64,000 bases of DNA, taken from Lytechinus pictus. Lineage: Eukaryota. Where the stretch lies: NCBI RefSeq assembly GCF_037042905.1, contig NC_087245.1, positions 24,306,001 to 24,370,000 on the forward strand, written 5' to 3'. Positions 19,223-46,300 of the stretch are shown here, one piece after another. The notes beneath the pieces are model-generated. The model worked only from the letters and a program-made list of their open reading frames with translations, was not told the DNA's origin and ran no database searches. Numbering within the stretch: the stretch's first letter is position 1; each line of letters begins with the position of its first letter. The position numbers were made by a program, and so were the translations under genes.

Positions 19223-19629
19223 AATACCTCTTAACGCGCGAAGCGAGTTAATGAGAGGTTATCTCAGGTCAGACTAGCTGGACAACAACATAGCCCGCCA
19301 GCGGTACGTAACAGGTGTTTTACAAGGAAGGAGCCTGGTCAGGCGAATTCCTTTGCCCTGGCGGAGATATGTTGCGATGCCAAATATGGTATTTTGTCGG
19401 ACTTCACGAGGAGGCGTGGCCAAAAAATGTTGCGTTGCGAATTTTGGTATTTTTCGGACATTACAAGGAGGCGTGGCTAAAAATGCTACGTCGCGTTAGC
19501 TGACGTGGTAATTTCGGGAGGGGGCAAAAGCCAATTTCTAACAAGTTAGCATTCTTCTTCGTGGAGTCGATTTGAAAGCATCTTCCATCTCAATTCACCT
19601 GTCTTGTGCAACATACTTCCTGTATTTTT
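19223..19629 (+). repeat. Split direct repeat A1 (407 bp), copy of A2 at 25007-25413
   Basis: Same sequence at offset 5784; identical 62-aa ORFs at 19315 and 25099. Confidence 0.95.
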
Positions 19630-19847
19630 GTTATTCGTTCGTTGAACTCTTTAGTTGTGATCCTTCTAATTGTCTTTCTTACCCATTCATATATCTTAAA
19701 GAACGCTTCGCAGTTGAGAATTTATTCTTTTATCTAGGAACATACCTGTATATTTGTGTTATATCCGTTTGTTGGACTTTTGAGCTGTTAGGAGTCACAG
19801 TTTGCTCTAAGGACTTTTCAATTTCGCCACCCCTGCATTATTCAATC

Positions 19848-20957
19848 ATGCCCAAGGTTAAGCCAGGCAAAAAGTTAAGTCAGAGGAAGTCTACTCGTCG
19901 TTCGGTCCGAGATGCCGCCAGCCAGCCTTCTCCTGTCGACCTCGAGACAGACGTCGGCCAAGTTTTTACTTCTACGCAGAGTCCAGCTGCTGGAAGTTCG
20001 GCGTCGACAACCAACGGTGAGTTCGGGACAATGGGGGGCTCCTGGCCTCTTGTGACTTCTCCACAAGATCCGGTCATTCCCCAAATTCAATCCCAAGCTT
20101 CTCCTTCTATCCCTCCTGCCCATGTAGTTGAGGGGCTTAATAGTCATGATAATTTTACACCAGCCCCCAACCCTCCTTTTCCTACGCTGTCTGCGCAGCC
20201 AGATATGCTTAGCTGTGTGTGTGATGATTTGGGCGGGGAGGTGCCTTCCAGTGTTAAGGAGAAGATTTGGAAAGGTGAATTTGTAGAGTTAGGTGGATTA
20301 CTAAAAAGGGAAAGCTTAAGTGAGGAAAGTTCCCAGTTGCAGGCCTTCAGCCTTTGTGCCACCGGGTCCGCTTTAATGCTTCGCCCCCAAAGCAAGGCTC
20401 CGGTGATCGCCAGCATAGAACAGTGGACATCTGCGTTCATTATTTACGCGTCTATATACTTGGAGCGACACTGTATGCGTGCGCGCGAGCTCCTCAAGTA
20501 TATGGATATCGTTCGCTCTATTGTGCGTTTTGGGGGTTTCAATTGGCGGGCCTATGACATTCAATTTCGGTTACGTCAGGCCCGTCATCCACATCGTTCC
20601 TGGGCTGTCATAGACACCGAGCTATGGCTGACAGTAGCTTCGACGCCCGGTCGAGCAGCGTTTTCGTCTTTTGGGGGTAACCAGCCCTTTCGGCCATACG
20701 ACCGGTCGTTTCGGCGGGGTAGTTTCCCATCCTCAGGATATGCCAACAGACAAGGGGCAATTCGGGCCCCTGGCGCCGCGCCTGCCCCCTTCCGCTCCTC
20801 ACCAGTCTGTTTCGCCTTTAACGCTGGGTCATGCCAACGCACCGCCTGTCGTTATGCTCACCGGTGCGGAAAATGCTCCTCAGCAGCGCATGGCTCACAC
20901 ACCTGCAACTCTGCCGCTGCAATCGCCAAACAGAAGCCTAGCTCCAACTCCAATTAA
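19848..20957 (+). CDS. gag: Gag-like protein of Ngaro element
   Basis: First ATG at 19848 in ORF 19572-20957; KEKIWKGEFVEL, W..AF.IY, WRAYDIQFR and C-terminal Cys/His knuckle CFAFNAGSCQRTACRYAHRCGKC...HGSHTC. Confidence 0.85.
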   Translation: MPKVKPGKKLSQRKSTRRSVRDAASQPSPVDLETDVGQVFTSTQSPAAGSSASTTNGEFGTMGGSWPLVTSPQDPVIPQIQSQASPSIPPAHVVEGLNSHDNFTPAPNPPFPTLSAQPDMLSCVCDDLGGEVPSSVKEKIWKGEFVELGGLLKRESLSEESSQLQAFSLCATGSALMLRPQSKAPVIASIEQWTSAFIIYASIYLERHCMRARELLKYMDIVRSIVRFGGFNWRAYDIQFRLRQARHPHRSWAVIDTELWLTVASTPGRAAFSSFGGNQPFRPYDRSFRRGSFPSSGYANRQGAIRAPGAAPAPFRSSPVCFAFNAGSCQRTACRYAHRCGKCSSAAHGSHTCNSAAAIAKQKPSSNSN

Positions 20958-22521
20958 ACTTGGCAGCATGCTCCCATTTCTTAGACGGCACCATAATCAA
21001 CATAATGCAGCTTTTCTGATTTCTGGTTTTAGGTTGGGTTTTTCATTGGGTTTCACAGGCGAGCGTCGCTCTGTGTTCTCGCGTAATTTGAAATCTGCTA
21101 GGGAGCATAGGGACATGCTGTTGGAGAAAGTTGGTAAGGAAGTTAGTTTAGGGAGAATGTCAGGTCCTTTCCAAGACCCGCCTTTCGATAACTTTCGCTG
21201 CTCCCCGGTAGGGCTCGTCCCCAAGCGAAATCCGGGAGAATTCCGTCTAATTCAGCATCTATCTTCTCCTCGGGGGGCTTCGGTTAATGACCACATTGAT
21301 TCCGATTTATGTTCCGTGAATTACACTTCATTTGACAAGGCGGTTGATCTCGTTGCTCGCTTGGGAGCTAGTGCTCTCATGGGAAAAACCGATATAAAAT
21401 CCGCTTTTCGCTTACTACCAGTGAATCCCTCCGATTTTGACCTTCTGGGGTTTTGCATTGATGGCGCGTATTACTTTGATAAATGCTTGCCAATGGGCTG
21501 CTCAATTTCATGTGCCCATTTTGAGCGTTTTAGCACTTTTCTTGAGTCATGTTGCCGTGAAATTGCGAATTCAGAGCAAATTTTGCATTATTTGGATGAT
21601 TTCTTTTTTGTTGGCGCAACACGGCAGGAATGTCGTTCCTTGATGTATCATTTTAAGGCGATGTGCGAGGTTTTTGGCGTCCCGATAGCGGAGGAGAAGA
21701 CTGAGGGGCCCGTTCCCACTATCATATTTTTAGGGCTTGAAATCGACGCGGCTGAGCAGAGAGTTCGGGTACCCAAGGAGAAAGTAAACGTGTTACAGGC
21801 AATGCTCATTGATTTTGTTAAGAAAGATAAGCTCTCGTTGCGGCAGTTGCAGTCGCTAATTGGCAGCCTTAATTTCGTGTGTAAAGCCGTGGCTCCCGGA
21901 AGAGCCTTCCTAAGGAGACTTATCGATCTTACTAAAGGGGTCCGCACCTCAAACCACCGGATAAGGCTTTCACGCGGCGCAAAAGAGGACATGCAGGCCT
22001 GGCTTACGTTTCTGTCCGATTTCAATGGCACAGTTATGTTTTCACACTCAACATGGGTAACTAATGCTCATTTTCAATTCTTTACTGACGCTGCGGGTAG
22101 CATTGGCTTTGGTATATCCTTCCAGGATAAGTGGGCTCAAGGGAAATGGCCAGCTGAAATACTGGAGAAGAATTATTCCATCGCTTTTCTAGAGCTTTTC
22201 CCAATAGTAGTCGGTATACGTATGTGGGGGGCTCTTCTAGCTAATTCTAAGGTCTTATTTTGGTCAGATAATCAAACAGTTGTTCATGTTGTTAATTCCT
22301 TAACTTCGAAATGTCCTAGTGTAATGAAACTGGTTCGTTTGCTTGTAGTTCTTTGTTTGGAACATAATATTATGTTCAAAGCACGTTACGTGCCAGGCTC
22401 TCGCAATGAAAAGGCTGATGCCCTCTCTCGTTTTCAGATGGACAGGTTTCGCAGGTTAGCACCAGGCGCAGATCTGGCTGGCAGCAAGCTTCCCGCCCAT
22501 CTTTGGAGCAGCTTCATATAG
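20671..22521 (+). CDS. pol: Reverse transcriptase-RNase H of Ngaro element
   Basis: KTDIKSAFR, LPMG, YLDD, FLG motifs; RNase H FTDAA..LELF..WSDN..ADALSR; overlaps gag; first ATG at 20968. Confidence 0.95.
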   Translation: MGVTSPFGHTTGRFGGVVSHPQDMPTDKGQFGPLAPRLPPSAPHQSVSPLTLGHANAPPVVMLTGAENAPQQRMAHTPATLPLQSPNRSLAPTPIKLGSMLPFLRRHHNQHNAAFLISGFRLGFSLGFTGERRSVFSRNLKSAREHRDMLLEKVGKEVSLGRMSGPFQDPPFDNFRCSPVGLVPKRNPGEFRLIQHLSSPRGASVNDHIDSDLCSVNYTSFDKAVDLVARLGASALMGKTDIKSAFRLLPVNPSDFDLLGFCIDGAYYFDKCLPMGCSISCAHFERFSTFLESCCREIANSEQILHYLDDFFFVGATRQECRSLMYHFKAMCEVFGVPIAEEKTEGPVPTIIFLGLEIDAAEQRVRVPKEKVNVLQAMLIDFVKKDKLSLRQLQSLIGSLNFVCKAVAPGRAFLRRLIDLTKGVRTSNHRIRLSRGAKEDMQAWLTFLSDFNGTVMFSHSTWVTNAHFQFFTDAAGSIGFGISFQDKWAQGKWPAEILEKNYSIAFLELFPIVVGIRMWGALLANSKVLFWSDNQTVVHVVNSLTSKCPSVMKLVRLLVVLCLEHNIMFKARYVPGSRNEKADALSRFQMDRFRRLAPGADLAGSKLPAHLWSSFI

Positions 22522-23429
22522 AGAGAGAGCATCTGTTGTTTTCTTCGCGGGCGCCCGGCACTCATCATACTTATAGGAACGCTTGGTCTGTGTTTAAGCA
22601 GTTTCGGCTGCAATATCATTATGATATAAGTATACGTCCTGACGTTGAGCAGGTCGCTCAATTTATTGCTTATCTCTCCTGGAATGGGTATGCGGGGGCA
22701 ACAATAAGTACATATATATCAGGCCTGGCTTTTACGATGCAAACATTGGGTTGGCCTGATGTGACTGACGCGTTTGTAATCCGGCGGCTGGTAGACGGGT
22801 GCAGGCGGAAAAATGCTCGCCGTGATACCCGGTGTCCCATAACCCTGCCTATTCTCAAATCCATCCTAAATTCATTGACTCACGTATGCGTTAATACGTA
22901 TGATCTGGCATTGTTTCGGGCTGCCTTTCTAATCGCTTTCTTTGGTTTTCTTCGAGTAGGGGAGTTCACGTCTCGATCTAGACATGAACCCGTTCCTTTA
23001 TCAGAAAAAGATGTTATTATTCAAGGGATGGGTAATCAAGCAAAATTGCGCATTGTGATTGCGAGGTCTAAAACAGATCAAACTGGACGTGGATGCTCGA
23101 TTTTAATTCCACAGAATGTTGTTTCGTATTTATGCCCACTTCGCGCTGTAAATGATTACCTCGCTCTGCGGAGCTCGGTCGGCTCTGCCTTTTTCCGTCA
23201 CTTTGACTCGTCACCCCTAACGAGGCACCAATTTGGCCAAGTTTTAAAGCGTGCCATTAGTTTTTGCGGGCTACCCGTTGCTCATTTCTCTTCCCATTCT
23301 TTCCGTATTGGGGCGGCAACTTCTGCAGCCATGGCAGGTGTTCCCGATGTTTGCATTCAAAATATGGGGCGCTGGGCTTCCAACACACACAGATTGTATA
23401 TTCGACAACCTCTCCCCCCCTTAATTTAA
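22503..23429 (+). CDS. Tyrosine recombinase (phage-integrase family) of Ngaro element
   Basis: Catalytic set GFLRVGE (R), SKTDQ (K), HSFRIG (HxxR), GRW (W), LYIR (Y). Confidence 0.95.
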   Translation: MEQLHIEREHLLFSSRAPGTHHTYRNAWSVFKQFRLQYHYDISIRPDVEQVAQFIAYLSWNGYAGATISTYISGLAFTMQTLGWPDVTDAFVIRRLVDGCRRKNARRDTRCPITLPILKSILNSLTHVCVNTYDLALFRAAFLIAFFGFLRVGEFTSRSRHEPVPLSEKDVIIQGMGNQAKLRIVIARSKTDQTGRGCSILIPQNVVSYLCPLRAVNDYLALRSSVGSAFFRHFDSSPLTRHQFGQVLKRAISFCGLPVAHFSSHSFRIGAATSAAMAGVPDVCIQNMGRWASNTHRLYIRQPLPPLI

Positions 23430-24395
23430 GCAATTTTGCCAGTATGTTTATCACCCTTCTATGTTTAATACCAGTTTGTGCACAATTTAATATCGACCTA
23501 ATGTTTATTTGTTTTTGTTTTTTGACAACCCCTAACGAGCAGTAAATATTAACCTTACTCTCTCTCTCTCTCGCTTGTTGCCATGGTGACGCAATGGTTA
23601 TCTTACCCGTTAATAGTTCCACGGGCGCAGGCAGAATTGCTCGCCCACTGTTAGTAGATTGTGGTCTTTGCTACACTTATCGTGTTTATGGTAACTATGT
23701 ACCCCCCCCCCTTTTTAGAATGTACAATTGGTGCCGCTGTTTCTTTCCTTTTCTCTCTTCCATGTGCAGTTATTTGGAGTCTCAACGTGGGTTGTGTCAG
23801 CATTCCACGGAATCGTAAGAGAGGAAGGGGACAATTCACGTTTCGCTGACGCGGGCAGTCCCGCTCTAGTTGGGGGCGGGCCCTCACTACTCGGCACGTG
23901 GCCGGGTCCTAAAACTCAATACATCCGCGAACAGGAGAACACTTGATTTCTTTGTCGCGGAGCGAAATCACTAGATTAACAGCTGTTTTACCTCCGTCGA
24001 GGACTCGCTGGCTCGGACGTCGCGAACAGTTGGAACTTTTTTATGAGCAGATGTTATGACCTGAATACCTTATCCAGAACTCACACGTGGTATCATCAGA
24101 TCTCACGTCTTTACTACAAACTTCACTATTTACTGACTAAGCCCCGCCCCCCCCCCGCCTCTCCTTTATCTTAGTGCACTAGACTCTTCGCAAGTGGACT
24201 GAATGAGCATGAATCCTCCTAGATGGTTTAATTGTGCGTCCCTGTTCGTTTAATGCACCCCCCCCCCCTTTTCCCCGCTTCTTAGCGTGGACCTTGTAAA
24301 TACAGCATGGTTTGAACTATTGGCATCATATTGTGTTGTGGCGGCGGGCTGACGATGAGTCATCCCGTTTGGCGGCATTCCATTTTTTGCCACAA

Positions 24396-25009
24396 CACAT
24401 TATGATTCTTCACTTATTTTGGGCTTCCTGAGATAATATTTTTCATTTATTTAGACCAATTTCGTATATTCCACTCCTCATGTTATAATGTGAACGGGGC
24501 TTGGTTCGTCACCCGATTTGGATGAGGCCACCAGCGAATTCCATTTCGGACCGAACATTAACGTTGCCTCGTTCACATTCTAGTTCAGGGCCGTTGGTGG
24601 GGCTTCTGAGCACTAGTTTCTGTTTTAAAAGTTTTCCTGCATAAGCTCGTGTTGCAAACGGGAATCTTTGCTTCGTAGCTTTGCAGATGGAATTTTACGT
24701 TGCCCACATTTGGCCAACATGACAAACTGGTGTCTTTGTCATGAATGTGGATGGACTGTTTTAATTGTCAATTGAGGAGATTGGTTTAATAACTTTAATT
24801 TTTCGCATATGACACATCTCAGGAGGCTTTACGTTTATATTATTATGTTTTGATTGTTGCATTATATTATGTTGGCTTTATTTGACAACACACCATTTTG
24901 CATTTTGGTATACATCATTTGGATGATGCTTTTCAGAAACAATTTTTATTAAACTCCACGGAAAATGCATTTACTCGCCTCTCGTGTATTTTGTCTGGGT
25001 TGAGATAAT
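24396..25009 (+). repeat. Split direct repeat B1 (614 bp), copy of B2 at 25677-26290
   Basis: Same sequence at offset 1281; one substitution noticed (24467 T vs 25748 G). Confidence 0.95.
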
Positions 25010-25413
25010 ACCTCTTAACGCGCGAAGCGAGTTAATGAGAGGTTATCTCAGGTCAGACTAGCTGGACAACAACATAGCCCGCCAGCGGTACGTAACAGGT
25101 GTTTTACAAGGAAGGAGCCTGGTCAGGCGAATTCCTTTGCCCTGGCGGAGATATGTTGCGATGCCAAATATGGTATTTTGTCGGACTTCACGAGGAGGCG
25201 TGGCCAAAAAATGTTGCGTTGCGAATTTTGGTATTTTTCGGACATTACAAGGAGGCGTGGCTAAAAATGCTACGTCGCGTTAGCTGACGTGGTAATTTCG
25301 GGAGGGGGCAAAAGCCAATTTCTAACAAGTTAGCATTCTTCTTCGTGGAGTCGATTTGAAAGCATCTTCCATCTCAATTCACCTGTCTTGTGCAACATAC
25401 TTCCTGTATTTTT
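25007..25413 (+). repeat. Split direct repeat A2
   Basis: Copy of 19223-19629. Confidence 0.95.
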
Positions 25414-25676
25414 CCCTCCTCCATCCCCTTGTCACCCCCACTAATTTTCAACGTCAAGATGTTTTGTTTCATGTTATTCATTCTAACCTGAATGTGAGCT
25501 TCGGGCCTTAAGCCTGGTCGCACACCCAAAGTGGGCCGCAAGGTAATTCCATCCAACCTGTTCACCTAATTTTGGATACCTTTTTGTATTTTACTTTGGT
25601 TTACCAGTTTAGTTAATTTATCATCAGGTGTTCAGGGGGGTGTTTTCGCCCTTGCTGGAGCTCGGCCTTTTCCTAT

Positions 25677-26290
25677 CACATTATGATTCTTCACTTATTT
25701 TGGGCTTCCTGAGATAATATTTTTCATTTATTTAGACCAATTTCGTAGATTCCACTCCTCATGTTATAATGTGAACGGGGCTTGGTTCGTCACCCGATTT
25801 GGATGAGGCCACCAGCGAATTCCATTTCGGACCGAACATTAACGTTGCCTCGTTCACATTCTAGTTCAGGGCCGTTGGTGGGGCTTCTGAGCACTAGTTT
25901 CTGTTTTAAAAGTTTTCCTGCATAAGCTCGTGTTGCAAACGGGAATCTTTGCTTCGTAGCTTTGCAGATGGAATTTTACGTTGCCCACATTTGGCCAACA
26001 TGACAAACTGGTGTCTTTGTCATGAATGTGGATGGACTGTTTTAATTGTCAATTGAGGAGATTGGTTTAATAACTTTAATTTTTCGCATATGACACATCT
26101 CAGGAGGCTTTACGTTTATATTATTATGTTTTGATTGTTGCATTATATTATGTTGGCTTTATTTGACAACACACCATTTTGCATTTTGGTATACATCATT
26201 TGGATGATGCTTTTCAGAAACAATTTTTATTAAACTCCACGGAAAATGCATTTACTCGCCTCTCGTGTATTTTGTCTGGGTTGAGATAAT
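25677..26290 (+). repeat. Split direct repeat B2
   Basis: Copy of 24396-25009; ends at TTGAGATAAT. Confidence 0.95.
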
Positions 26291-27202: not shown

Positions 27203-29062
27203 TTAGTAACTCGCATACGAATAATTTGACAGTTCATGGCAACTCGATGTCTTTCGACGAGGGGGTTTCAGATTTCCACCCATTTCATCACTGGTAGCAT
27301 ACACGTACACTCCAATATCATCTTCCACTACCATGCTCGGAACGAGGTAACCACTTTTGTCCACCTGGTCCTCTTGCCATGATCTTGCGGATATCGTTTT
27401 CTTGCTTTCTACCAGAACTTCTGTTGGTGGATAGTGTGCTCTGGGGTTCCTTGAATTTTTGGCACGGAGGACAATTGGGCTCTCATCACCAACGCCTTGC
27501 GCCCCGTCAGGTAATAGATAGTCATCGTCATCCGATATGCAAATGGGAAGTTTCATCCCGATCGAGTCTGTGGATTGACTTTCGTTTAAGTTGGAACGGG
27601 TCTTTCCTTGCGCAGGATGGTTGACCCGTGGAACGAGAGCCGGGGATTTTCTTACTTGAATATCCGGACCACTTGCTCCCTTTTCTGCAGGGCTGGGATG
27701 CTTGGCTCTCTTTGTGATGTTACGGCTCAGAATGTCTTTCATTGACACATACACTGGCATTTTCCGATTTTCGTTTTTGTTGGCTCCTTCTTTTTGAGTC
27801 ACAGATACATTATTACGCTTTCTCGTCTTGCAAATGAAAATAAGAAAGCAGAAAGTAATAACAAATAAAACTGATACCGAAACAATTAAAGGTAAAACTA
27901 TAGTCATACCAAATGTTTTATCAAGAATATTGGTAGATCTTTTGTGAGAATGGTCAGAAAAATGAGACATGATTGTTAATAGTGCTTCCGATATCAAGAT
28001 GTTCTCATTTTGGTCCTCACTTATCAGTTGACAGCTGACAATCAGTGGTTCGTCTGTAAGTACCTGAATGTCTTTTATCATCAGCATGCTTGCTTTGTTG
28101 GACTGCGTTATCTCCATTTTACTGATAAGGTCTCCTGGATCATACAATCTTGAAGACACGTTCCAATGAAACGTTCCGTTGGGTGCTTCCAAACTTGCGA
28201 TGCAGACAAACATGGCATTCATTCCCTGCTGAATAACACTGTACAATGGATCAATCCGGACACCTTGGCGACGAACTTGAGCCAATAACCCCGATCGTTT
28301 ATTTTGCATATAAGAGCAGGTCTCTTCAAAACGACCCTCGCCTATCATCCCGTTCAAGGCGCATGTGAAATTAAAGCATTCTTCGATATTGTTGAGCATC
28401 ACCCTTGCCGTCACTATCTCACCAACAAAGTACTTGCTCAGGAGTTCCTTACCATTGCAGAACAACGTCGGCCATGCGTCAGGATGATCTTGAGCAGACC
28501 AGCTACACCTAACCTCCATCTCCTCTTCGTTTGCATTAATCAGATTCATCATCGGCGGAATATAAGACGCAGAACATTTTAACGAATGTGAAGGATTCGG
28601 TATTTTGGATCGGTCAAAGTCTGAAGTATCAAGCGAACTCGAAAAATCATTTCCAGGAATGACGATCACCTCTCCTGCCCAAAGTACTTGCTTGTCCAAA
28701 CCTATAGAGCTGTAACACATGTAAATACCGCTCACGTCCTCACTCGCCATGTACACATCAAGGTAATATATGCGATTCAAACCATCAACCGTATCAACGC
28801 TTATTCCAAAGTTATCCCAATTGGTCCCATAGTCGAAGAGTATATCATTCTTGCTAATGAAACGGCGATATCGTATGGATAACCAGTAAACGTCATCGTT
28901 GTTGGCGGTTCCTGCTTGGCATTCCATAGTCGCACTTTCGCCAGCATTAACGGTAACTTGTTGAAATTCTACATCACCGATGTCCAGAGAAAGTGCAGTT
29001 ATGCTGTAACAGCTTCCCAAAAGAAACAAAACACCTGTGAAGACCGAAGTTGCTTTCATCAT
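27203..29062 (-). CDS. Intronless Ig-superfamily type I membrane protein with tyrosine-motif cytoplasmic tail (619 aa)
   Basis: Signal peptide; Ig domains (GESATMEC..VYW..SGIYMC; AMFVC..FHW..IVSC); TM IVLPLIVSVSVLFVITFCFLIFIC-KTRKR; tail YVSM, YLLP, YLVP, YVYA. Confidence 0.88.
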   Translation of the reverse strand: MMKATSVFTGVLFLLGSCYSITALSLDIGDVEFQQVTVNAGESATMECQAGTANNDDVYWLSIRYRRFISKNDILFDYGTNWDNFGISVDTVDGLNRIYYLDVYMASEDVSGIYMCYSSIGLDKQVLWAGEVIVIPGNDFSSSLDTSDFDRSKIPNPSHSLKCSASYIPPMMNLINANEEEMEVRCSWSAQDHPDAWPTLFCNGKELLSKYFVGEIVTARVMLNNIEECFNFTCALNGMIGEGRFEETCSYMQNKRSGLLAQVRRQGVRIDPLYSVIQQGMNAMFVCIASLEAPNGTFHWNVSSRLYDPGDLISKMEITQSNKASMLMIKDIQVLTDEPLIVSCQLISEDQNENILISEALLTIMSHFSDHSHKRSTNILDKTFGMTIVLPLIVSVSVLFVITFCFLIFICKTRKRNNVSVTQKEGANKNENRKMPVYVSMKDILSRNITKRAKHPSPAEKGASGPDIQVRKSPALVPRVNHPAQGKTRSNLNESQSTDSIGMKLPICISDDDDYLLPDGAQGVGDESPIVLRAKNSRNPRAHYPPTEVLVESKKTISARSWQEDQVDKSGYLVPSMVVEDDIGVYVYATSDEMGGNLKPPRRKTSSCHELSNYSYASY

Positions 29063-30284
29063 GTCAATTAAAAGTGGGTGTTTTTTTTAAAACTAAAATC
29101 TTAAAAACTGACTGACGGTTATGCAGAGAAGATTATAAGGAGAGGAATAGTAAGTAGGTCTCACTGATCCAACTAAGTGTCCGTCTTCATGTGATGGCCG
29201 TGACGCCAATGATTAATTGTCAGTGTTATTTCAAACAAAGATAATATAAACAGCAGTCATTTCCTCTTTGACTGGACGCTCTTTATAATTGGAGTTAATG
29301 TTTCAACAGAGATTAGAAAACACTACAATGGAAATGATCAGACGATAGGATATTCGACTTGCGGATATTACACAACTTTTATATCCTGATGAAAAATAAA
29401 CTGATTAAGAGGTCACCACGCTTGCCTTCTACCACCGAGTGATGTAGATAATCGTAGTTTCATTTACCATGGTCAGGTAAAATATTTTACCTCTGCATTC
29501 AATGATCAATGACGTCATGGCGGCAAAAGAGGGTGCCATACAGCATGTACAGTTGATGTGAATGCTAACTCTCCAAGGCTTTCCCTTAATGGACCAGCAC
29601 AAATCAAATAAAACTTCACAAAGTCCATAAAAGGTACCTTCAAGATGTTAGGTTGTTTGATTACCATTTATCGAGTATGTTTAAATCCAGTACACATTAG
29701 GTTACGATAATGGTGATAATACAATTCAATAAAGATAATTGTGATGAAAATAAATATCGGTATCAATTCCCATATTCATTAAAAAAATAGATACAGATAA
29801 ATTACTAAATAACTGACGAAGTGGTAAATCTGGAAAGTTATTCTCTAAGTGTTGTATTGATAAAAGGGGACGTTGCCCTTTTAATTAGATAAAGATCAAG
29901 CTCTCGGAACCCACCCCCCCCCCCCACCCCTGGTGTGAAAAATCATTCACGTTTGAACACCTATTGTATACACTAAAATGTTCTTGATTTTGCCAAATTA
30001 AGTTAAAATTTTTGCTTGAAGCCGTTGCATTTTTATTTTATCCTTACAGCGAGGCTCGGAAAAGACTGGAATTGCGATTTCAGTATTCATATCAATGTTC
30101 GGAACATTCATTCTTCATATCAAATTTCATTACAATTTATTTGAAATCGGATTGCAACGGATCGCTGTAATGTGCATCGGACTTTATTCTAAAACTCCAA
30201 TTTGACAAAAAAAGGTGAAGCGATTGTATATATTTCTTAGTTATGTAGAAAGAGGCATTTGAAGGGTTTGAAGCTAAAATATTG

Positions 30285-31344
30285 TCATTTAGAGGAAACG
30301 CGATTCGCCACAGTGTACAAATATGGGTTGATTGATGAATTGATGGGTAGGACAAAGACTACAAGCCAGGCATAGATATCAGGGGTCACAACAACCACAT
30401 CGGCCTGGACTAGGATTCCAATGACAATGATTGGCATCCAACAGCACAGATCAGTTCCAACAATGAGGAACATCTTGCTGGCCATCTTCACCTGATCTAG
30501 GGACTTTGACTTCCGGCCAGCACTCCTTCCAGCGAAGTACACCTTGATGAAAACTGCTATGTAGCACAAGCAGATCACCACAAAGTTGAGCAGATTAACA
30601 CCAAGGAAGAGGGCAATCGCATACTGCCAAGTGGGAATCGATGTCCCAGAAATAATGGCGAATTCGGTAAAGCCGTACATCGACTTGGTGTAAGTATCTA
30701 CTGCGGCATACAGATCAATCTGCTTGCGGATGAGGGGAAGACCAACGCAAACGTCACTGAGACTGTATGCGTCGGTGTTCAAAAAGCCAAATGCGATTGA
30801 AATGCTACTGACCAGAAGAGCCAGTGCCCAGGTGAAGCCAGAGAAAACACGAGCAGAGACAACCCCCAGTCGCTTTTGACTGAAGGGAAATACAATGCAG
30901 ACTAATCGATCAACTGAAATGAGAGTGATAAGAAACACGGATGCCTCACTGCTTAAGACGGAGATGAATCCTGCAATTTGACAGGTATTGCTCTTTCGCC
31001 ATTCTTCGGATCTACCCTCCCAGAAGTAGGAATCCCCTATGTATATATCCATTACAGCTAAGATGATCATATAGACACCCATCAGAAAATCGGACACAGC
31101 TAAGTTGGTAATCAGTGTTGACTGAACAGAAGATATAGTGGTTTCGTGCTTGGTTCGCAACCTCATGATAATGACAAACGCGTTGCCAACCAAAGCGCTG
31201 AGACCGAGTATCCAGATAAACACCTTGATGGTTGTGTTTTGAAGAAATGTCTTGCGGCAGGTAAAGAGTGGGTGTGGTGGTTCTCTATTTACACATTCAG
31301 CACCAACCGGACGTAGACAGCACAGTCTTGGGTCATACACATGT
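30285..31344 (-). CDS. Terminal exon: hinge plus rhodopsin-type 7TM domain
   Basis: DPRLCC hinge, LVGN, NLAVSDFLMG, SVDR, TDLCCWMP, INPYLY. Confidence 0.95.
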
Positions 31345-34300
31345 CTGTATGAAAAAATACAGTTATATTGATCTATTGTTACAATCCCATTATATCAATA
31401 CGCGTTTGAGACACAACGCAGGCACTAAGTACGAAAACTAAAATAAGAGAAAATAATTGCGATGGAAGAAATTTCCAAATCCAAACATTGAATCGAATTT
31501 CGTCTAATATTCGAAAAACATATAACAGGAATCGAATTTGTTTGACAAAAACTAAAGACAAGGGGTAAAAAAAAATGATCGTGATTAACCAAGAGAAATA
31601 CGTATCACACAAGCATAGGCGGGGGTCCCCCCTAAATTTGAGGTGGGGGACGATCCCTCCCCCTAAATTTTTCGTTGATGACCTTTTTTTTTTTTTTTTT
31701 TTTTTTTTTTGCTTGTCAAAAATTGTTTTCGGTTCCCCCAAAAATGTTGGTTGATATGTAACTTTTTTTAGTTTTGCTTGTTAACATTTTTTGGTGGTCC
31801 CCCCTAAATTGTTTGGCTTCCGCCGCCAATGCACACAAGTAATACTTACAAAACCTTTAGATTCACAAGGCCTTCGAAAAGCTCGGGATAGAGAAGCATT
31901 GGTTTTGAGGATCTGGTCATTATACGCCTTTAAAGATAATAATAATAATAATATTGTTATTGAGACTACTGGTTACCCGTCTGAATCAACAAAATTTAGA
32001 TGACATCCATACACAGGATGAGAGGTAAAACCAACATTTAATAGAAGTCATAGAAACATTTTCCATCTGATTTTATTCAAATCCTTGAGTGGAATAATAA
32101 TACTACTGTCATTGGTGATTCTGCAAGAAGAGAATGCATTCCATTTTTGCAAACGAGAGAGACTTATTATCTTGGCTTTTAAGATTTATTTCTTTTACGG
32201 AATATTCGTCTTTTAAATTTGATGTTAGTCGTTGACAACGGAAATTATGTTGTTAAAAATTACCCCCCTCGTCCGAGAAAGGAAACATTTTTTTTTATTA
32301 CTTCTTCAATATTGGCACGTTTTTATTTGAAATACTCATTACGTAGGCGAAAATTTACTCTGATGCCCCAAGAGGGTTTTGAGTGTTAATAAACTTTCAA
32401 CTTTCACACTTTCAAACATCAACATAAACCAAAAAAATGCTCTATAATAATACGATATAATATTGGCAAGATCATACATGCCTCAATGTTTTTACTTTGA
32501 CATTTATTTTATTCATGTACTTACAAATCTGTAAGTTGAGGTTGGTCGCGAAAGGTCCCCGGTTCAATGAAGTAGATAGGGTTGCGGACCAATACCCTTG
32601 GGAGAAAAGCAAATATATAGAGAAATTCTTCAAGAAATTCATTAAAAAAATGTCGGTGTGTTATTCTCTTAGATTATGTAGGTTTGGAATTGAACGTTAC
32701 CAAATCCATCCATCTGTTTGTTTTTGAAAATCTTGAACCCATCTCCTACGGTTTAACGTTGTACAGATGATTATACTGCCTCTTGAAAATCAGAACCTAT
32801 CTCATGCAGGGGTGTAATTTAACAGCAGACTGTCGTCTTAAATGTTAAAGTCAAGAAGTTATTACAAATCGATTGGCCATCAGTGAGTTTACCGGCTATA
32901 TGGAGTTATAAACTTCTAACCTTCTTTTAATCGTCTTTTGATGAGTGATTGATAGTAAGCATGTTTCAATTGATTCTCAAGCCTTTTTTATGTCACTTTC
33001 TTCGATTTTATCCTGGATGCATTTTAGATGACTAATCGATAAACTCAAGTGATGTATTTATTTGTGGTAAAGACCGTAACATGGACTCACAACATGATAA
33101 ACTGCTCCCCCATTCCTTCCAGTATTGAAGCATTGAAGGATGTCATCAGGTTGTCCTCCAGAATCCTTGTTAACAAAAAATGTCAAGAGAAGACATTTGA
33201 ATCAGTAATAGTTTCTTCACCGTTCCTATTCTAAATACTAATTTTGCCAGAGCAAAAACATTAAAATTTCGCCGTTTCAATTTAATTCGCTTCAATTTGC
33301 GATACTCACATCCTGAAAATAATCAACTTTTTTTCAACCCACATTTCTAAGAATTTATGCCTTACCAATCCCAAAATCATTAGTCGCCCACAAATCAAAT
33401 CAACATATTAATTATGATCCTTTTCTTTGGAATTATTTACCTACATGAGCTGAAACATAAATAATCCGCACTTAATGCCATGTTAGATCATCGTCTAGCA
33501 TATAAATCACTAATTCTATTCTCTGATATTTTTTTTAACATTTCTCCTTTATTCATTATTTCTCCTATTTTCACTGTAGCTTTATTAATGCAGCGGTATC
33601 ATACTGGAACCCTTTCTCCTCAATTAATGAATATGTTTTCTTTCAATTGTAATATACATAATCACTATACAAGGTCTTCAAGACAACTTCACAGATGAAA
33701 TTACAAGAATGACTTATCTAAATTTTCATTGCGTCACACTGGTCCCACAATATGGAATAGTCTGAATCTTGAACAATTTAATATTACCTTTCATGATATT
33801 TTTAAAAAGCAATATAAAAATAAACTGATCCAAAGTTACTAAGATCCTCATCGTACTATAAATTTCCATTAGGTTTGCTTTGTGTCTTGTTGTTGATGTT
33901 TTTTTTTTTTTGTCTTTGCTTTTGTTCTTTTGCTACTTGCCACATCCATATATTACAATTATTTTAAGAATCAATTTACTTTGGGTGTGTGCGTTTTAAC
34001 AAGCCTTCTCCTGGCTTTTTTAGTGCACTCATGTTTCCCATTCATTTATCCTTCGTCTTGTTTTATATTGTTTCAATGATCTGGCAACAATACTTTGATT
34101 ATCACTTTCGCTTGTATTTATTTATGTTTTAATGATATGTTTTAATTTCTATTGTCTTCTTTGTTTGTACATGATCATGATATCAACTTGCATTTTTGAT
34201 GAATTGGAAATAAATGCTGAATTGAATTGAATTGAATATATTGTTGTCTTCCTGTAAATTTACTTGCAATTTACCCCCATTTGTACGAGCTTTTCTGCAA

Positions 34301-37300
34301 TATTCTAAATTTCTTATCACTTGAGACCGAATCAACCTTGTCGACATCTGCCAAGCTGTTCTTGATGGTAGCGCCTCCATTCCGTAAATAGCCCCCTTTC
34401 GCAATCCTCACGGACGCTAATATTAGGGTCCCCTAACACAAAAGTTAACGCTTAATCATACACTTGATTTTTAAGATTGATTGTACATTATAGTCAATAG
34501 AATCAAACGTAAAAAACTGCTCTACAATCAATGCTAAGCTTTGTGTAACAGGGGGTTACAGGCCCTACAGATCTGATTTTCATGTGCAAAATTCTTTCCC
34601 GCGACACCCGCACCATAAATGCATGTACATTACGACTGATGACTGGAGATATTCGAAATGCAGGACCTACAATAGATTATGACATGTATAAGAAAGTGTT
34701 TTTTCAAACAAATCGGGTACATATTGAGTGAGGAAAAAGTTACTGAATTAAGGCTTAGATATAGATCATTACAGTCCATCGAATCGATATTGCATTTAAT
34801 GTGGATTATTGGTGGATCTCTGGCAATTGATTCCATGGGTCAAATCACCTCTCCAGCCGAAACCATTTCGCATGCGTTGATTATGTACACAGCATGTATA
34901 CGTCTGAACAGGGACGTGAGAGGCCGTCCTTGGTCTGAACACGTACCAGCCGAATTTGCGGGTTTTTTTCTTTTGTTTACTCCTACACAAACAATCTGCC
35001 TCTAGCACACAATGTAATGGGCATTATGTTTTACTTTCGCCAGAAATGGGGGATTAGATTCGAATTCCCGGGGGGACCACTTCCATTGATGAGTGGATAC
35101 CAGGCACGGTTTCGAAAAGCACCCTAAACAAGGGAAGCAAGGCTTTTCCAGATTATGAAAATGCATCTCTTAACAAGTATTTAGCTTGTGAAACCCTACA
35201 AGTATTGAAAACATATCCTCCTTTTCAGTATTTTAAACATCGTTTTTGACACCCTTATAACGTTACATAGGCCTATACGTAACGTACTTGCCCACTCTTT
35301 CCCTTTTTACGCGTGGTCGCGCCTGGTATCCACTCTTCAATGGAAGTGGGGCCCCCGGGCGGCCTCTCGAGCTCTGGGAGGAACCAAATGTGGCTTTGGA
35401 AAGTCGTCCTAAATCGGATATATCACTGTTACCATTATGATAGTAGCAACCATAATTTTGCACCCGAAACGCAGATTGAATGTTTCCGTTCCAGATGCGA
35501 AACGAAAAAAAAATTTCATGTCACACAATTTGCATTGCAGGACAGAGTTTTACGACCATGACGACGGGCCCAAATGTCTCTTCCAAAATCAACTACCGTC
35601 GCAAATAAGCGTTCGCGTTCTCCAACGAAAGGTCGGGACTGTCTCACCTTTACAACTATGAATTGTCTTAATTTTTGCTCATTGTTTTTGCCAACTTTAT
35701 GTCTTGGTGACAGAAATGCATACTTACAGCCGTTGTAAGGAGCCACCTAAATCGGTAAACGTCCCTGGGCGAAGCTCGGCTAGGCTGTTGTCCTCGAAAT
35801 TACTAACGTAAAACAAAACAAAACAAAACAAATATCGTAATATGTTCGACCGTTGCTTTTGAGGAGGCCTTATTAAGATTAAACGTGAGTCGAGTTCACG
35901 TCAATTTAAAATCAAGCATTTTGACATGAACAATGTCCCATTGGCAGATTACCCCCCCCCCCCCCCCCGAAAAAAAGGGTAAATTGACATATTCGGTGAC
36001 CATTTCTATAGTTATCAATAACTTTAGGAATTTATAGTCCCGGCTTATAGTAAGGCCTATGAGAATGATCAATAATCAATATACAAATGGGATATTATCA
36101 TTTTTGTCATCAAACTTGTTGCCTTGATTAATGTTTTATGCAATACCCTTTATAAGAATACTACAGTCTGCTCAGACAAACACATTTATAAAGAAACCTT
36201 AATAAAACAGGTAATTTTTCTGCGTACTCCCCTTCGTTCGTGCCTATATTTCGACCAATTAGGTGTCTCTGCAAAAAAAAATGAAATGGTATACGCAGCG
36301 TTTCTCGACATGGAATGTTGTGATTGCCGTAGTCTTTGTACAAGGACGACCCTGTTGTAGTATAATTATAGGTTATATGTTAAGTAGATCATTCTTACAT
36401 GAAGAAAAGGTTGTGCAGGTCCCGAAAACAACCCTCGTCAAGACGGTGGATCTTGTTTTCATCTAAAAATCTGTCGATCAAAATGATGAGACATAAAAAA
36501 AAAGTTCTTAAGGAAAATGCAAATTTTTTTGGTTAAAGTAACACTTTGTAATTATACTTTTCGATGTTTAAATGAAAATGTATAAATAACACACAGTGGG
36601 TTCTCGAACTTCGCGGATGACCCCGAGGTCTGAATTTTCAAAACCAACAATATCCTTGGTTCGTTTTGTAAAGCGGTAGCACCCCTACATTGCGTTTTGA
36701 CGGAAGTGAGTGACGAGAAGTTGTTGGTACTATATATGACAGATATGTGCAATTAACCCAAAGAGATTGTGTAGCAGAAACGTAGTTATTATCAGTAATA
36801 AAATTGTTAATATGATAAATGCCAATTTGAAATTAAAACTTCCGGACGAACTTTCACTATAACTACAACATTATGATAAGGATATAAGGCCACATTGTGT
36901 TCAGCGATAAATAACATACTCACAATAGACGTAGGTTGTACAATCCTCGAAATGTCCCATTTTCTAAGACGGATAGGGAATTGTTTAGAGCTCGCCTGTG
37001 TATTGAAATTACAAAAATATGGGGACATCCCGATAGACCGCGGGTCCGATAGACCGCGGGTCCGTTAGACCGCGGGTCCGATAGACCGCGGGTCCGATAG
37101 TCCGCGGGTCCGATAGACCGCGGGTCCGATAGTCCGCAGTGTGTGTAAAATTATGATCAGATATATCAAATGTCATCGAGAGGTCCAAAGGTCAAATGAT
37201 ACGAGGCCATGGGGTTCTATCAGGTGCGGATCCATGGATGGCCGAGGGGGAACTGCCTCACCCCCCCCCCCCCCCACCCCCAGCTCAAAAAAAAAGAGGG

Positions 37301-43300: not shown

Positions 43301-46300
43301 ACCAAATTTTGATTGGCTTCTTAAAACCTATTTGTGAAAAGACAAATTACGCTAAACAATGTGCAGTATATAAACTTTGTGTTATGTGTTACTTTAAGAT
43401 TGACCAAAGTGAATGTTGGTTTATGCTTCTCACATGCCTATTAATTGTATGAGATCCTGAAAAAATGTTATGGCATCAAAATGATCATTAGATCTACAAA
43501 AAAATACTTAAAATCTGAAAAATATTAACCGTGCTTTATCAAGCGGTGTAGACTTGGGTAAAACGCAAAGTATATAACACCACGAATGTTTTACTATGAG
43601 GAGGGCTTTTGGCTGAAATTATTTTACAAGTAACTTTTATCTCAGAAAGAGGGGGTGGGAAGCCCTTATATGCTTTTTCAACCTTTATTTTGTTTGCATT
43701 ATGCCCGGAATTCATGTCATTTTCATGGAATTGAAGGGGAATCGTCCTCGCCGTGCAAAAATGAACGGCAATGTACACCCCACACGCTGCGCTGCAATGA
43801 CTGCGCGGTATAAAAATGACCGTTTTTTAACAGGTTTTGGGGGTGTTGTGTCCAGTAAAATCGGCTCTAACATATAAACGGGCAAAACCGGGCAGCTAAA
43901 TTTAGTATCGACTTAAACCTTAGACATCTGGCAAAGTGATGATGATAGAATTTAAACGGAAATCCACGGAAATCAAAACGTTTCTAATGTAAATGCAAAA
44001 AACATGGATTATCAGCATATTTCGAGGAATAATAATCCTAAAAACCTCCTGAAATGTGTCTTTTATCTACTTTGAACCCTTTCACATAAAAAAGAATATA
44101 TCAGGATTATGTGGGTGCCATTTCAGATTCCTACATGAAAAACCTCCTGTGAAATGGCTTGTTTTTTAACTAAGTTGTCATATAAGCGGCATTTCGCAAA
44201 ATGTCACATTTTACGTTTTGAGGTAGGAAATTAACAACCTTTATGCAAATTCCCGAATGAAATATTTTGCTGAAGTATTCTTCAAAGTGTTGTCTTTCAG
44301 CTGGGCATGACAAAATTTAAAAAATCTGAAATTGCCCAAAATTGCTTTTGGCGCACTTTTGTTTCGCCCCGGCCCACTGTGGGACGGTTCGAGAACGGAG
44401 GAAAATTATTGTCAAGTGACCTTCATGACAAAGTGCAACCAGTAAAATCTTTGTCGATGGTGGGGTGAACCATAACATCAGTTTCATCCTGGACTCGGGA
44501 CAATTTGTTTGTTCGTCAGCTCCAAACCTTAGGACAAAACTGACTGACTCTGCAATTGTCGACAAAGACCTCCCAGTTGTCCTTTATCATTTTATGGGCA
44601 TTTCCAATACATTTACTGTGTTCTCGATCCCTACGTATGTTGCGGAGCAAAAACTCACTATTGCATGACTGCGGACGCTTAAAATTGCGATTCTACTTGA
44701 CAAGATGGGGACATTATTAAGTCGACATCTGAGAAAATAAATGTATGCCAAGTACCAATGACAATATGCAAGTTTTAAAGGTCTATGTGGTAAGATTATT
44801 TATAGGACCCTGTCGACTTCCAAATTTGATAAGTCGACATGATAAGGCTATTAAGCGGACTTGATAAGATAACATGTTTTGAATTCTCTTCAGAGTTTTT
44901 TTTTAAGTGTGTTGAATAAAAATGATTAAACTTACAGTGAGTGGAGATAATCATATCCTCTGAATGCTCCCGGAGTCAAGATTACCAACGAATCACTTCT
45001 GACAAATCTGAATAAAAAAAAAAGATATCCTATTAATTCAAGATGTATTCCTTAAAATAAAAGAAACAAGTGGAAAGCCTCTGGCAGTCTCGCCTACATG
45101 TGTGATTCAATATAGCAGCAGTGCTGACTTTGAAAACAGCTATTGAATAATAATTCACAAAAGAAAATATTCATAAGATAATCAAATACTATGTCCATTG
45201 ACCCAAAATGACCTTTGACCATGATCATGTGATCTAAGGTGTGTTCAAAACATTCATTTATACTTGATTACCCTTGTATCTATGCTTCATGAACTAGATC
45301 CATAAACTTTTTAAGTTATGATGCCAATTCAACAAATACCCCCAACATGGCCAAAGTTTATTGACCCTCAATGACCTTTGACCTTGGTCATGTGACCTGA
45401 AACTCGCACAGGATGTTTAGTGATACTTGATTTCCAAGTTTTATGAATCACTCGCATTTGTTGTTGAAAACATTTGACCTGAAACTCGGGTAGGATGTTT
45501 AGTAATACTTCATCACCTCTATGTGTAAGTTTCATGAACTTGGTCCATATAATGTTTAAGTTATGACATTTTAAAAACTTAACCTTAGGTTAAGATTTCG
45601 ATATTGATTCCCCCAACATGGTCTAAGTTCCTTGACCCTAAATCACCTTTGACCTTGATTATGTGACCTGAACCAAGGCAGGATGATCAGTAATACTGAA
45701 TTACCCTTATGTCCAAGTTTCATGAACTAAGTTTCTATACTTTCTTAGCTGTGATGTCATTTCAAAAACTTAACCTTAGGTTAGGATTTGATGTTGATAT
45801 CGCCGCCGCCACCGTCGGAAAAGTATCGCATATTGTCTCGCTCTGCTATGAAGGCGAGACAAAAAGGCAAGAATGTTTGTACCGTGCGTCCCAGATAAAA
45901 AAAGGAAACAGTTATTCAGTATATTTTTGCCATCATAATCATAAATTCGCTTCATGATATGTACATTAATGAAAGAATATGTTTCCCCTCTTTATTTTAT
46001 AACGCCACCACAACGTTCATAATACATGCTTGACCGAGTTAAAACAATTGAAAGTGGTGGTACCAAATTGTCATTTGCATAAATTTTCGTGGATGTTCAT
46101 TTCTTATGAAATATTTTTAACACGTTTATTGCAATGTTTATGAATAAACTTATCCACCACAGTCGATTTATATCTAGTTCTGACACCCCTTCTTCAGATA
46201 ATCTACTGTATTATTGGATTATCTGACAATCGGCAACAGATGGGTTTACCGAACTGCATGAAAGGGGCGCGCGAAGTAAAGATTTTAAGTAAGAAAATCA

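Follow-up and report, generated by a model that had tools for sequence, protein, structure and literature searches.

A predicted junction hairpin in a Ngaro retrotransposon of Lytechinus pictus as a candidate folded attachment site for its tyrosine recombinase

Introduction

The CTXphi attP(+) site is a folded single strand that mimics a duplex site, on which XerC exchanges one strand. As the available sections of PMC7790495 indicate, CTXphi shows that a folded strand can serve as substrate for a tyrosine recombinase (YR) without the integron I2 helix. Integron attC sites are cut at AA/C, at the end of a paired box that is followed by an unpaired spacer, and their recombined strand is richer in G:T pairs and often carries a GAA loop (PMC5027507, in the part available).

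Among retroelements, the closest described systems are DIRS-1 and Ngaro. In the DIRS-1 model, as given in the accessible parts of PMC7192593 and PMC3266345, an internal copy of the joined ends (ICR) restores the termini, the junction contains AA and the intermediate is a circle. Single-stranded cDNA exists and can complete transposition, the circle is made double-stranded (before integration in PMC7192593) and recombination takes place at a 3-bp match; the model as set out in these parts includes no junction fold and assigns no role to the "right extension" of the ends. The same sections of PMC7192593 report that YR specificity has never been studied experimentally and that the predicted circle junction went undetected by PCR, and the only hairpin that they mention is a different, priming one. 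Ngaro elements, according to the available parts of PMC8547959, PMC9210276 and PMC4157794, have the layout A1-ORFs-B1A2-B2, encode gag, reverse transcriptase (RT)-RNase H and YR, give no methyltransferase match and have two to three letters in common with their targets at the ends; these parts describe neither a junction hairpin nor an integration mechanism. A term look-up found "hairpin" absent from the text available for PMC8547959, PMC6681497, PMC3783388, PMC9210276, PMC4157794 and PMC3266345. No junction fold or folded-strand mechanism for DIRS-order elements was found in the literature searched, which consisted of partial article texts.

Results

The window carries an intact Ngaro element

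The window, i.e. the whole 64,000-nucleotide stretch that was analysed (NC_087245.1, 24,306,001 to 24,370,000; positions below count from its first letter), contains a complete element with the following parts.

19223..26290, plus strand: complete Ngaro-type YR retrotransposon, A1-ORFs-B1A2-spacer-B2, delimited by repeats and ORFs
19223..19629, plus strand: repeat A1, 407 nt, identical to A2
19542..20957, plus strand: ORF1, gag-like by position, with a Cys/His-rich end and without a Pfam match
20638..22521, plus strand: ORF2, reverse transcriptase followed by an RNase H-like part (RVT_1, E 2.8e-13)
22419..23429, plus strand: ORF3, YR, with the catalytic residues and a fold nearest to Cre
24396..25009, plus strand: repeat B1, 614 nt, one difference from B2
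24948..24953, plus strand: poly(A)-signal hexamer in B1, 61 nt ahead of the crossover, with a second copy in B2 at 26229-26234
25007..25413, plus strand: repeat A2, identical to A1
25677..26290, plus strand: repeat B2, the right terminus, from repeat comparison

By structure, this element is an intact, ordinary Ngaro, and the junction is its point of interest. It agrees with published Ngaro in its direct, split repeats (A1-ORFs-B1A2-B2), in its gag-like, RT/RNase H and YR ORFs, with the YR ahead of the internal repeats, in the two to three letters shared at its ends, and in the lack of a Dam-like methyltransferase domain, none of which was found in a domain search of the element. It differs in having no SGNH hydrolase ORF, which is present in two sister Ngaro families. 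The DIRS1-like layout of ITR plus ICR is absent from the window element, whose repeats are direct, and true ITR/ICR elements occur elsewhere in the genome carrying the window (G000). The family has about 30 copies in this genome, and the RT of the window element shows 45-47% identity to the hydrolase-bearing sister families and 20-27% to PAT-like families. Strictly, the element's own letters are 19225-26289, the AA core being common to element and target.

The A1/A2 and B1/B2 pairs are nearly always identical within a copy, which fits rebuilding in each cycle without placing the template switches. Raw RNA runs contained 7-41 reads each, mostly in one orientation and often extending into flanking DNA, too few for mapping starts or ends, and there were no records of RNA type among the listed matches to the element. 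Repeat A holds two diverged copies (82%) of a 58-nt unit, at 19369-19495 and 25153-25279 in the window.

The YR resembles Cre by sequence and predicted fold, and residues R179, K218, H293, R296, W319 and Y327 are unchanged across six families. In the YR model, 14 residues lie between helices 240-254 and 269-282, where we take I2 to be placed, and this interval is too short for an IntI-type I2 helix. No IntI-specific model was present among the four NCBIfam matches of the YR, and the IntI structure 2a3v ranked 47th in the structure comparison, below Cre.

Insertion ends map to a single bond

The B/A junction is the point where Ngaro copies join the chromosome. A reading made earlier from the letters of the window (hereafter the sequence-only reading) had taken a shared AAT as the crossover. 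Mapped element ends correct this to a single bond.

25008..25009, plus strand: crossover bond AA/T, from mapped element ends

Among 22 distinct left ends of the window family, A stands at -2 in all 22, A at -1 in 21 and T at -3 in 16, and T stands at +1 in only 14 of 24 right ends. The bond is fixed between 25008 and 25009 because T follows in no more than these 14 right ends and because one left end has T for the second A. The same letter counts indicate a target that resembles TAA 5' of the bond and is loose 3' of it. All 24 right ends match at most three letters of the start of A, and 21 of the 22 left ends match at most four letters of the end of B, the remaining one being a counter-example with six. 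The ends of the window family map to one bond and form a single crossover class. With the two-strand exchange chemistry of YR, as set out in the available part of PMC3458562, exchange over a mismatched 6-8 bp spacer would be expected to leave two classes of ends; one was observed. In a PAT-like family (L069), GAC/TAT is joined to targets ending in AA (9 of 10) with zero shared letters, so target choice there is not by homology.

Permuted junctions were absent from all 54 readable junctions in three families (16 + 31 + 7, the 31 being the distinct places among 39 rows of one family): the spacer comes next in every case, never the ORF side. A duplex circle with two equal B/A junctions would be expected to give permuted copies in about half of the cases.

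These counts bear on the classical alternative, that of the published DIRS model, in which the YR binds the double-stranded junction of a circular molecule and uses a 2-3 bp match for recombination, the self-complementarity of the junction representing repeated binding arms or cruciform extrusion. A Cre-like YR without an I2 helix suits such a site, as do the AA common to the target in 21 of 22 left ends and the circular intermediate described in the parts of PMC7192593 and PMC3266345 available (the former with conversion to double strand before integration). On the other hand, the second crossover class is absent, no junction is permuted and one family integrates without shared letters.

Several copies depart from the standard layout. 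A tandem extra A-spacer-B unit is present in two of them (L401, G000:C4:24882500-24892499, and L038), solo A-spacer-B copies were found at L026 and three times in the L069 family, and many A-ORFs-B copies lack that unit. Homologous recombination explains the extra, solo and shortened copies, and YR excision from junction to end would look identical. A separate one-junction circle as the source of the A-ORFs-B copies is unneeded, since full and shortened forms have one right flank in common (L393-L395). At L278 (1500-1515), the right flank of one insertion resembles the start of A with an offset of one letter, and L279 holds an element-free paralogous host repeat.

The junction is predicted to fold into a long hairpin

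The predicted fold comprises the following parts.

24993..25058, plus strand: B1/A2 junction hairpin, candidate folded attachment site (predicted fold)
25001..25008, plus strand: arm preceding the crossover, paired with 25043-25050 and corresponding to the R box of attC
25009..25010, plus strand: unpaired bases 3' of the crossover, which may slide to 25008-09
25011..25042, plus strand: apical stem, with a 3-nt bulge (25035-37), a G.A mismatch and a 3-nt loop (25024-26)

The pairings named in the sequence-only reading are all present: 24993-97/25054-58, 25001-08/25043-50, 25011-15/25038-42, 25016-19/25031-34 and 25021-23/25027-29, closed by the loop 25024-26. As single-stranded DNA, 24993-25058 reaches -16.2 kcal/mol (z -5.9), with none of 200 shuffles equally stable, and its minus strand -14.8 kcal/mol. 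Under a fixed window rule, the junction is the lowest of 175 windows of 66 nt in the element, i.e. lower than the 174 others. The full stem had been said to require that B's end be joined to A's start, and this holds as well: the corresponding window folds to -10.4 at the left terminus and, at the right one, to -4.3 (z -0.7). The apical part (25011-42) lies wholly inside A, so it can form at A1 too.

The 2-nt bulge that had been placed at the crossover is present, but it slides between 25008-09 (-16.2) and 25009-10 (-15.8), two registers 0.4 kcal apart. T25009 is the only base unpaired in both (P paired 0.07). The lowest-energy register in the window family spans the crossover with the bulge, which counts against a folded site. 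The bulge had also been likened to the extrahelical bases of attC; the bases are indeed unpaired at the crossover, but their counterpart is the unpaired central spacer of attC. Further irregularities, absent from the sequence-only reading, are a 3x3 loop (24998-25000/25051-53), the 3-nt bulge (25035-37) and the G.A mismatch.

As duplex DNA, the inverted repeat with a 7-nt spacer that had been noticed around the crossover is present with 6 of 7 matches, in keeping with a duplex site, but 7% of nearby positions score equally. In the other three Ngaro families (below) this repeat is at background, with 35-93% of positions scoring equally. As conserved binding arms it was rejected, being at background in five of nine families, at 7% in three and below every background position in one. 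The centre of the hairpin, moreover, lies 16 nt off the crossover, and altogether we consider a classical duplex site improbable.

The GCGAAGC mini-hairpin has special stability. As a sign of single-stranded DNA it was discarded: the loop G is replaced by A in all three runs carrying the label of a second organism, and GCGAAGC is absent from the other families. These runs show two changes within the hairpin, both at unpaired bases, and 11 substitutions plus two indels in the flanks. In one subfamily, a C-G pair of the apical stem is replaced by T-A, a compensatory change, and one further change yields a T.G pair on the plus strand. Covariation counts gave one compensatory pair among four variants (279 of 500 shuffles as high), three pairs in the mirrored group described below (36 of 500) and one pair in a two-sequence set (240 of 500). 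RNAalifold on MAFFT alignments recovered neither consensus fold, and the four Ngaro junctions are not usefully alignable. The check across families that had been suggested thus gives compensatory changes that fit the fold, but in counts too small for significance and with no consensus fold.

Reads and contigs of two organisms match the window at 25029-25069 only, with other sequence on both sides, and perhaps represent a further related family; a partial relative, detected in loose read ends, was not found among the 390 loci examined.

The junction layout recurs in other families

YR and RT searches of the same genome identified three more Ngaro families, five PAT-like families and several DIRS1-like families. 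Two of the PAT-like families have Dam matches. Those of 40 loci that lack a readable junction were left out of the counts, as was L048, a chance tandem match.

A long junction hairpin is predicted in all nine split-repeat families, with only 0-4 of 93-194 other windows as low. Self-complementarity by chance and without function is hardly credible. Another hairpin of the window element has a similar z and the covariation counts are non-significant, as chance would allow, but the top-ranked fold falls at the same functional point in nine of nine families with unalignable sequences.

The register of the fold was scored by a rule of at least five paired bases 5' of the crossover and a first unpaired base 0-2 nt 3' of it. 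The eight other split-repeat families all have this register on the plus strand and none of the eight has it on the minus strand, at a chance rate of 11-28% of positions on the arm; in six of the eight the crossover is assumed by analogy, with a 2-nt ambiguity in three Ngaro families, a 1-nt ambiguity in one PAT-like family and little or no flank data in two, and the families are related and from one genome, hence not independent. An exactly mapped crossover is available for the window family and two PAT-like families only. The window family itself conforms in its 25009-10 register. In three PAT-like families the arrangement is mirrored, with the loop in B and the junction on the 3' arm, and the paired-then-unpaired polarity is retained.

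Conservation of the hairpin and of its bulge position in relatives was a point on which the sequence-only reading could fail. The fold and the crossover register do recur, in the eight split-repeat and in three DIRS1-like families, but the size of the bulge does not: in place of two unpaired nucleotides at the crossover, other families have 1x2, 3x3, 4x3 or 5x4 loops.

In the DIRS1-like families, the ICR matches the joined ends without a mismatch, yet the joined ends themselves fold, the outer stem being the ITR tip and the inner stem the right extension. In all three families with mapped ends, the outer stem of the minus-strand fold ends within 0-2 nt of the crossover; under the register rule two of these pass and the third is clipped by its window. 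Published DIRS1 circular junctions have AA on the minus strand in 25 of 28 elements (our count from Table 3 of PMC3266345, a paper available in part). Among further DIRS1-like copies, L281, L292 and L293 were inspected by eye only, and the crossover of L281 seemingly lies 3-4 nt inside the outer stem. The right extension forms the inner stem in L285, L287, L290, L292 and L293, several of which have a common short loop motif.

The ICR of these elements recalls another alternative, in which the distal arm in A1 would act as a splint that pairs with the free B2 end and holds linear cDNA ends for ligation or end restoration, like the DIRS-1 ICR. The distal arm is complementary to both the end of B and the start of A, and the available sections of PMC7192593 state that the ICR is required for DIRS-1 retrotransposition after first-strand synthesis and that most cDNA is linear. 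However, nearly every family leaves the bases immediately 3' of the joint unpaired, an unfavourable arrangement for ligation, and the DIRS1-like elements with a perfectly matching ICR keep the fold anyway. We therefore rate a splint as highly improbable.

Two layouts among the PAT-like copies deserve mention. In one family (L158-L161), B1A2 lies ahead of the YR ORF and B2 after it. Another (L128-L157, L166-L177) has at least 40 identical junction copies, stops in most YR ORFs, one open ORF and a very weak target preference. Outside this genome, viral contigs gave no match with a single protein and, with an alignment, only distant YRs without RT. Of 80 loci from metagenomes, four were Ngaro-like contigs, and split repeats could be mapped in none of these four.

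Strand bias and the poly(A) signal

G.T pairs in the junction folds number 14 on the plus strand versus 1 on the minus strand (P ~0.005 against flanking composition). A clear strand excess is present in only four of nine families, and in the window family the plus/minus energy gap of -1.3 equals the expectation from composition (-1.1 +/- 1.1), i.e. there is no strand excess. The excess of G.T pairs on the plus strand may instead reflect a GU-rich poly(A) downstream element.

Such an element is central to the strongest rival, which could coexist with a folded attachment site: the hairpin at B1A2 would form in the transcript and hide a GU-rich element downstream of the B1 poly(A) signal, allowing read-through to B2, or would mark a site of RT pausing or template switching, and the YR would act on duplex DNA. 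Several observations suit an RNA switch of this kind. A poly(A) hexamer lies 52-62 nt ahead of the crossover in all four Ngaro families, and it is the sole plus-strand hexamer type in the 3' region, with only two copies, as against 19 for the opposite strand. The left arm is rich in G and T. Folded as RNA, the junction is stable too (131 nt, z -3.9), and the fold exists at B1A2 only and favours the sense strand. In addition, if the pairing were selected just to mask the end of B, it would go no further than the B/A border anyway. However, a hexamer is absent within 170 nt of the crossover in all five PAT-like families. An RNA switch would also leave unexplained the mirrored PAT-like folds, whose inner stem is confined to B and whose pairing starts again past the unpaired bases, as well as the minus-strand polarity of the DIRS1-like elements and the lack of permuted copies. 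We regard it as unlikely, although it suits the Ngaro families well.

Discussion

Comparison with attC, CTXphi and DIRS-1

Compared with attC/IntI as described in the available parts of PMC3458562, PMC5027507 and PMC7790495, the junction has an imperfect hairpin of like size, predicted here. In the predicted folds, two paired boxes flank an unpaired central spacer and the crossover lies at the inner end of the first box. As in attC, the predicted cut follows AA at the paired-box end of the 5' arm, and next come unpaired spacer bases, another stem and a short loop of purines; the favoured strand is biased towards G:T pairs, and a single strand exchange is apparent. Several features are different. 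The core is AA/N rather than AA/C, and the RYYYAAC motif is lacking (AA/T here, other letters elsewhere). Fixed extrahelical bases are lacking too, with a 3-nt bulge here, 1x1 mismatches elsewhere and no shared bulge. The YR, as modelled, has no I2 helix, the target is loose rather than attI, the loop falls 5' or 3' of the crossover depending on the family, and the element is a eukaryotic retroelement with its own RT. Without an AAC core, fixed extrahelical bases and I2, the junction site is neither an attC site nor an integron.

With CTXphi the element would share a folded strand, a YR lacking I2 and the exchange of one strand (here proposed). CTXphi uses host XerCD and the fixed dif site, whereas the window element encodes its own YR and has many targets, with few letters shared at most and, in one family, no homology; it is thus not an IMEX of the CTXphi type, in which a dif mimic is recombined by host XerCD. 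From the DIRS-1 model our proposal retains the internal copy of the joined ends, the AA-containing junction and single-stranded cDNA. It departs from that model in the junction fold, in having no double-stranded circle with a 3-bp match, and in giving the right extension a place, as the inner stem.

A proposed folded-strand route to integration

The crossover position, the predicted fold, the layout common to the families, the single crossover class and the lack of permuted copies are the observations on which our interpretation builds. On balance, we favour the view that the junction is a folded single-strand attachment site for one-strand exchange by the YR, likely on a gapped circle with an unpaired plus-strand junction. 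The sequence-only reading had a single-stranded cDNA integrate through a folded site. The fold, the crossover register and the single bond agree with this, but the favoured strand is plus and the single-stranded DIRS-1 cDNA on record is antisense (DIRS-1 literature, available in part), so that second-strand DNA, not the first cDNA, is the more probable substrate. A plus-strand single-stranded intermediate is not reported in the parts of the DIRS and Ngaro literature searched.

Given the position of the poly(A) hexamer in the four Ngaro families, the terminal junction is likely missing from the RNA and, as a consequence, from the first cDNA. The RNA would end ~30-40 nt short of the end of B and start inside A, and the first (minus) cDNA would be without that junction. 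During plus-strand synthesis, template switches from B2 to B1 and from A2 to A1 would then copy the junction from B1A2. The product would be a gapped circle, in which the new B2/A1 junction alone is single-stranded and folded and B1A2 is duplex. The YR would cut the folded plus strand after AA, where the outer stem ends, and would cut the target on the 3' side of a TAA-like site; one strand pair would be swapped with little or no homology, and replication or repair would resolve the junction. The template copy of DIRS1-like elements (the ICR) is inverted, which would put the restored junction and its fold on the minus strand, where the layout is found. Restoration of the ends by copying B1A2 or the ICR would explain both why no copies are permuted and which strand folds in each of the three layouts.

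More tentatively, and with some doubt, Ngaro, PAT-like and DIRS1-like elements may all integrate by one integron-like route. The restored terminal junction would be single-stranded and fold into stem, unpaired spacer and stem, and a Cre-like YR without I2 would transfer one strand into a near-arbitrary duplex target. The folding strand would be set by repeat geometry, plus for direct repeats and minus for an inverted ICR.

If true, a folded single-strand site would explain the "homology" of two to three letters, the single crossover point and the absent permuted copies, and also why DIRS1 ends have a right extension and why single-stranded cDNA accumulates. It would amount to eukaryotic folded-strand tyrosine recombination by an enzyme without the integron I2 helix. 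With a substrate of 66 nt whose strand and cut site are predicted, the question of integration becomes reducible to oligonucleotide scale.

Other features of the window

A second strong hairpin at 24320-24412 (z -5.15 for this 93-nt stretch) straddles the start of B1. Beyond the element, two frames lie on the minus strand: an uninterrupted frame of 627 codons at 27203-29086 for an Ig-like membrane protein (Ig_3 E 1e-5, below the cut-off), and a frame at 30285-31394 for a rhodopsin-family 7TM receptor. A 16-nt tandem array at 37014-37157 is followed by a long purine-rich tract to ~38200. A dispersed repeat with units of ~162 nt in both orientations forms three clusters, at 1035-1786, 45104-45817 and 54894-55720.
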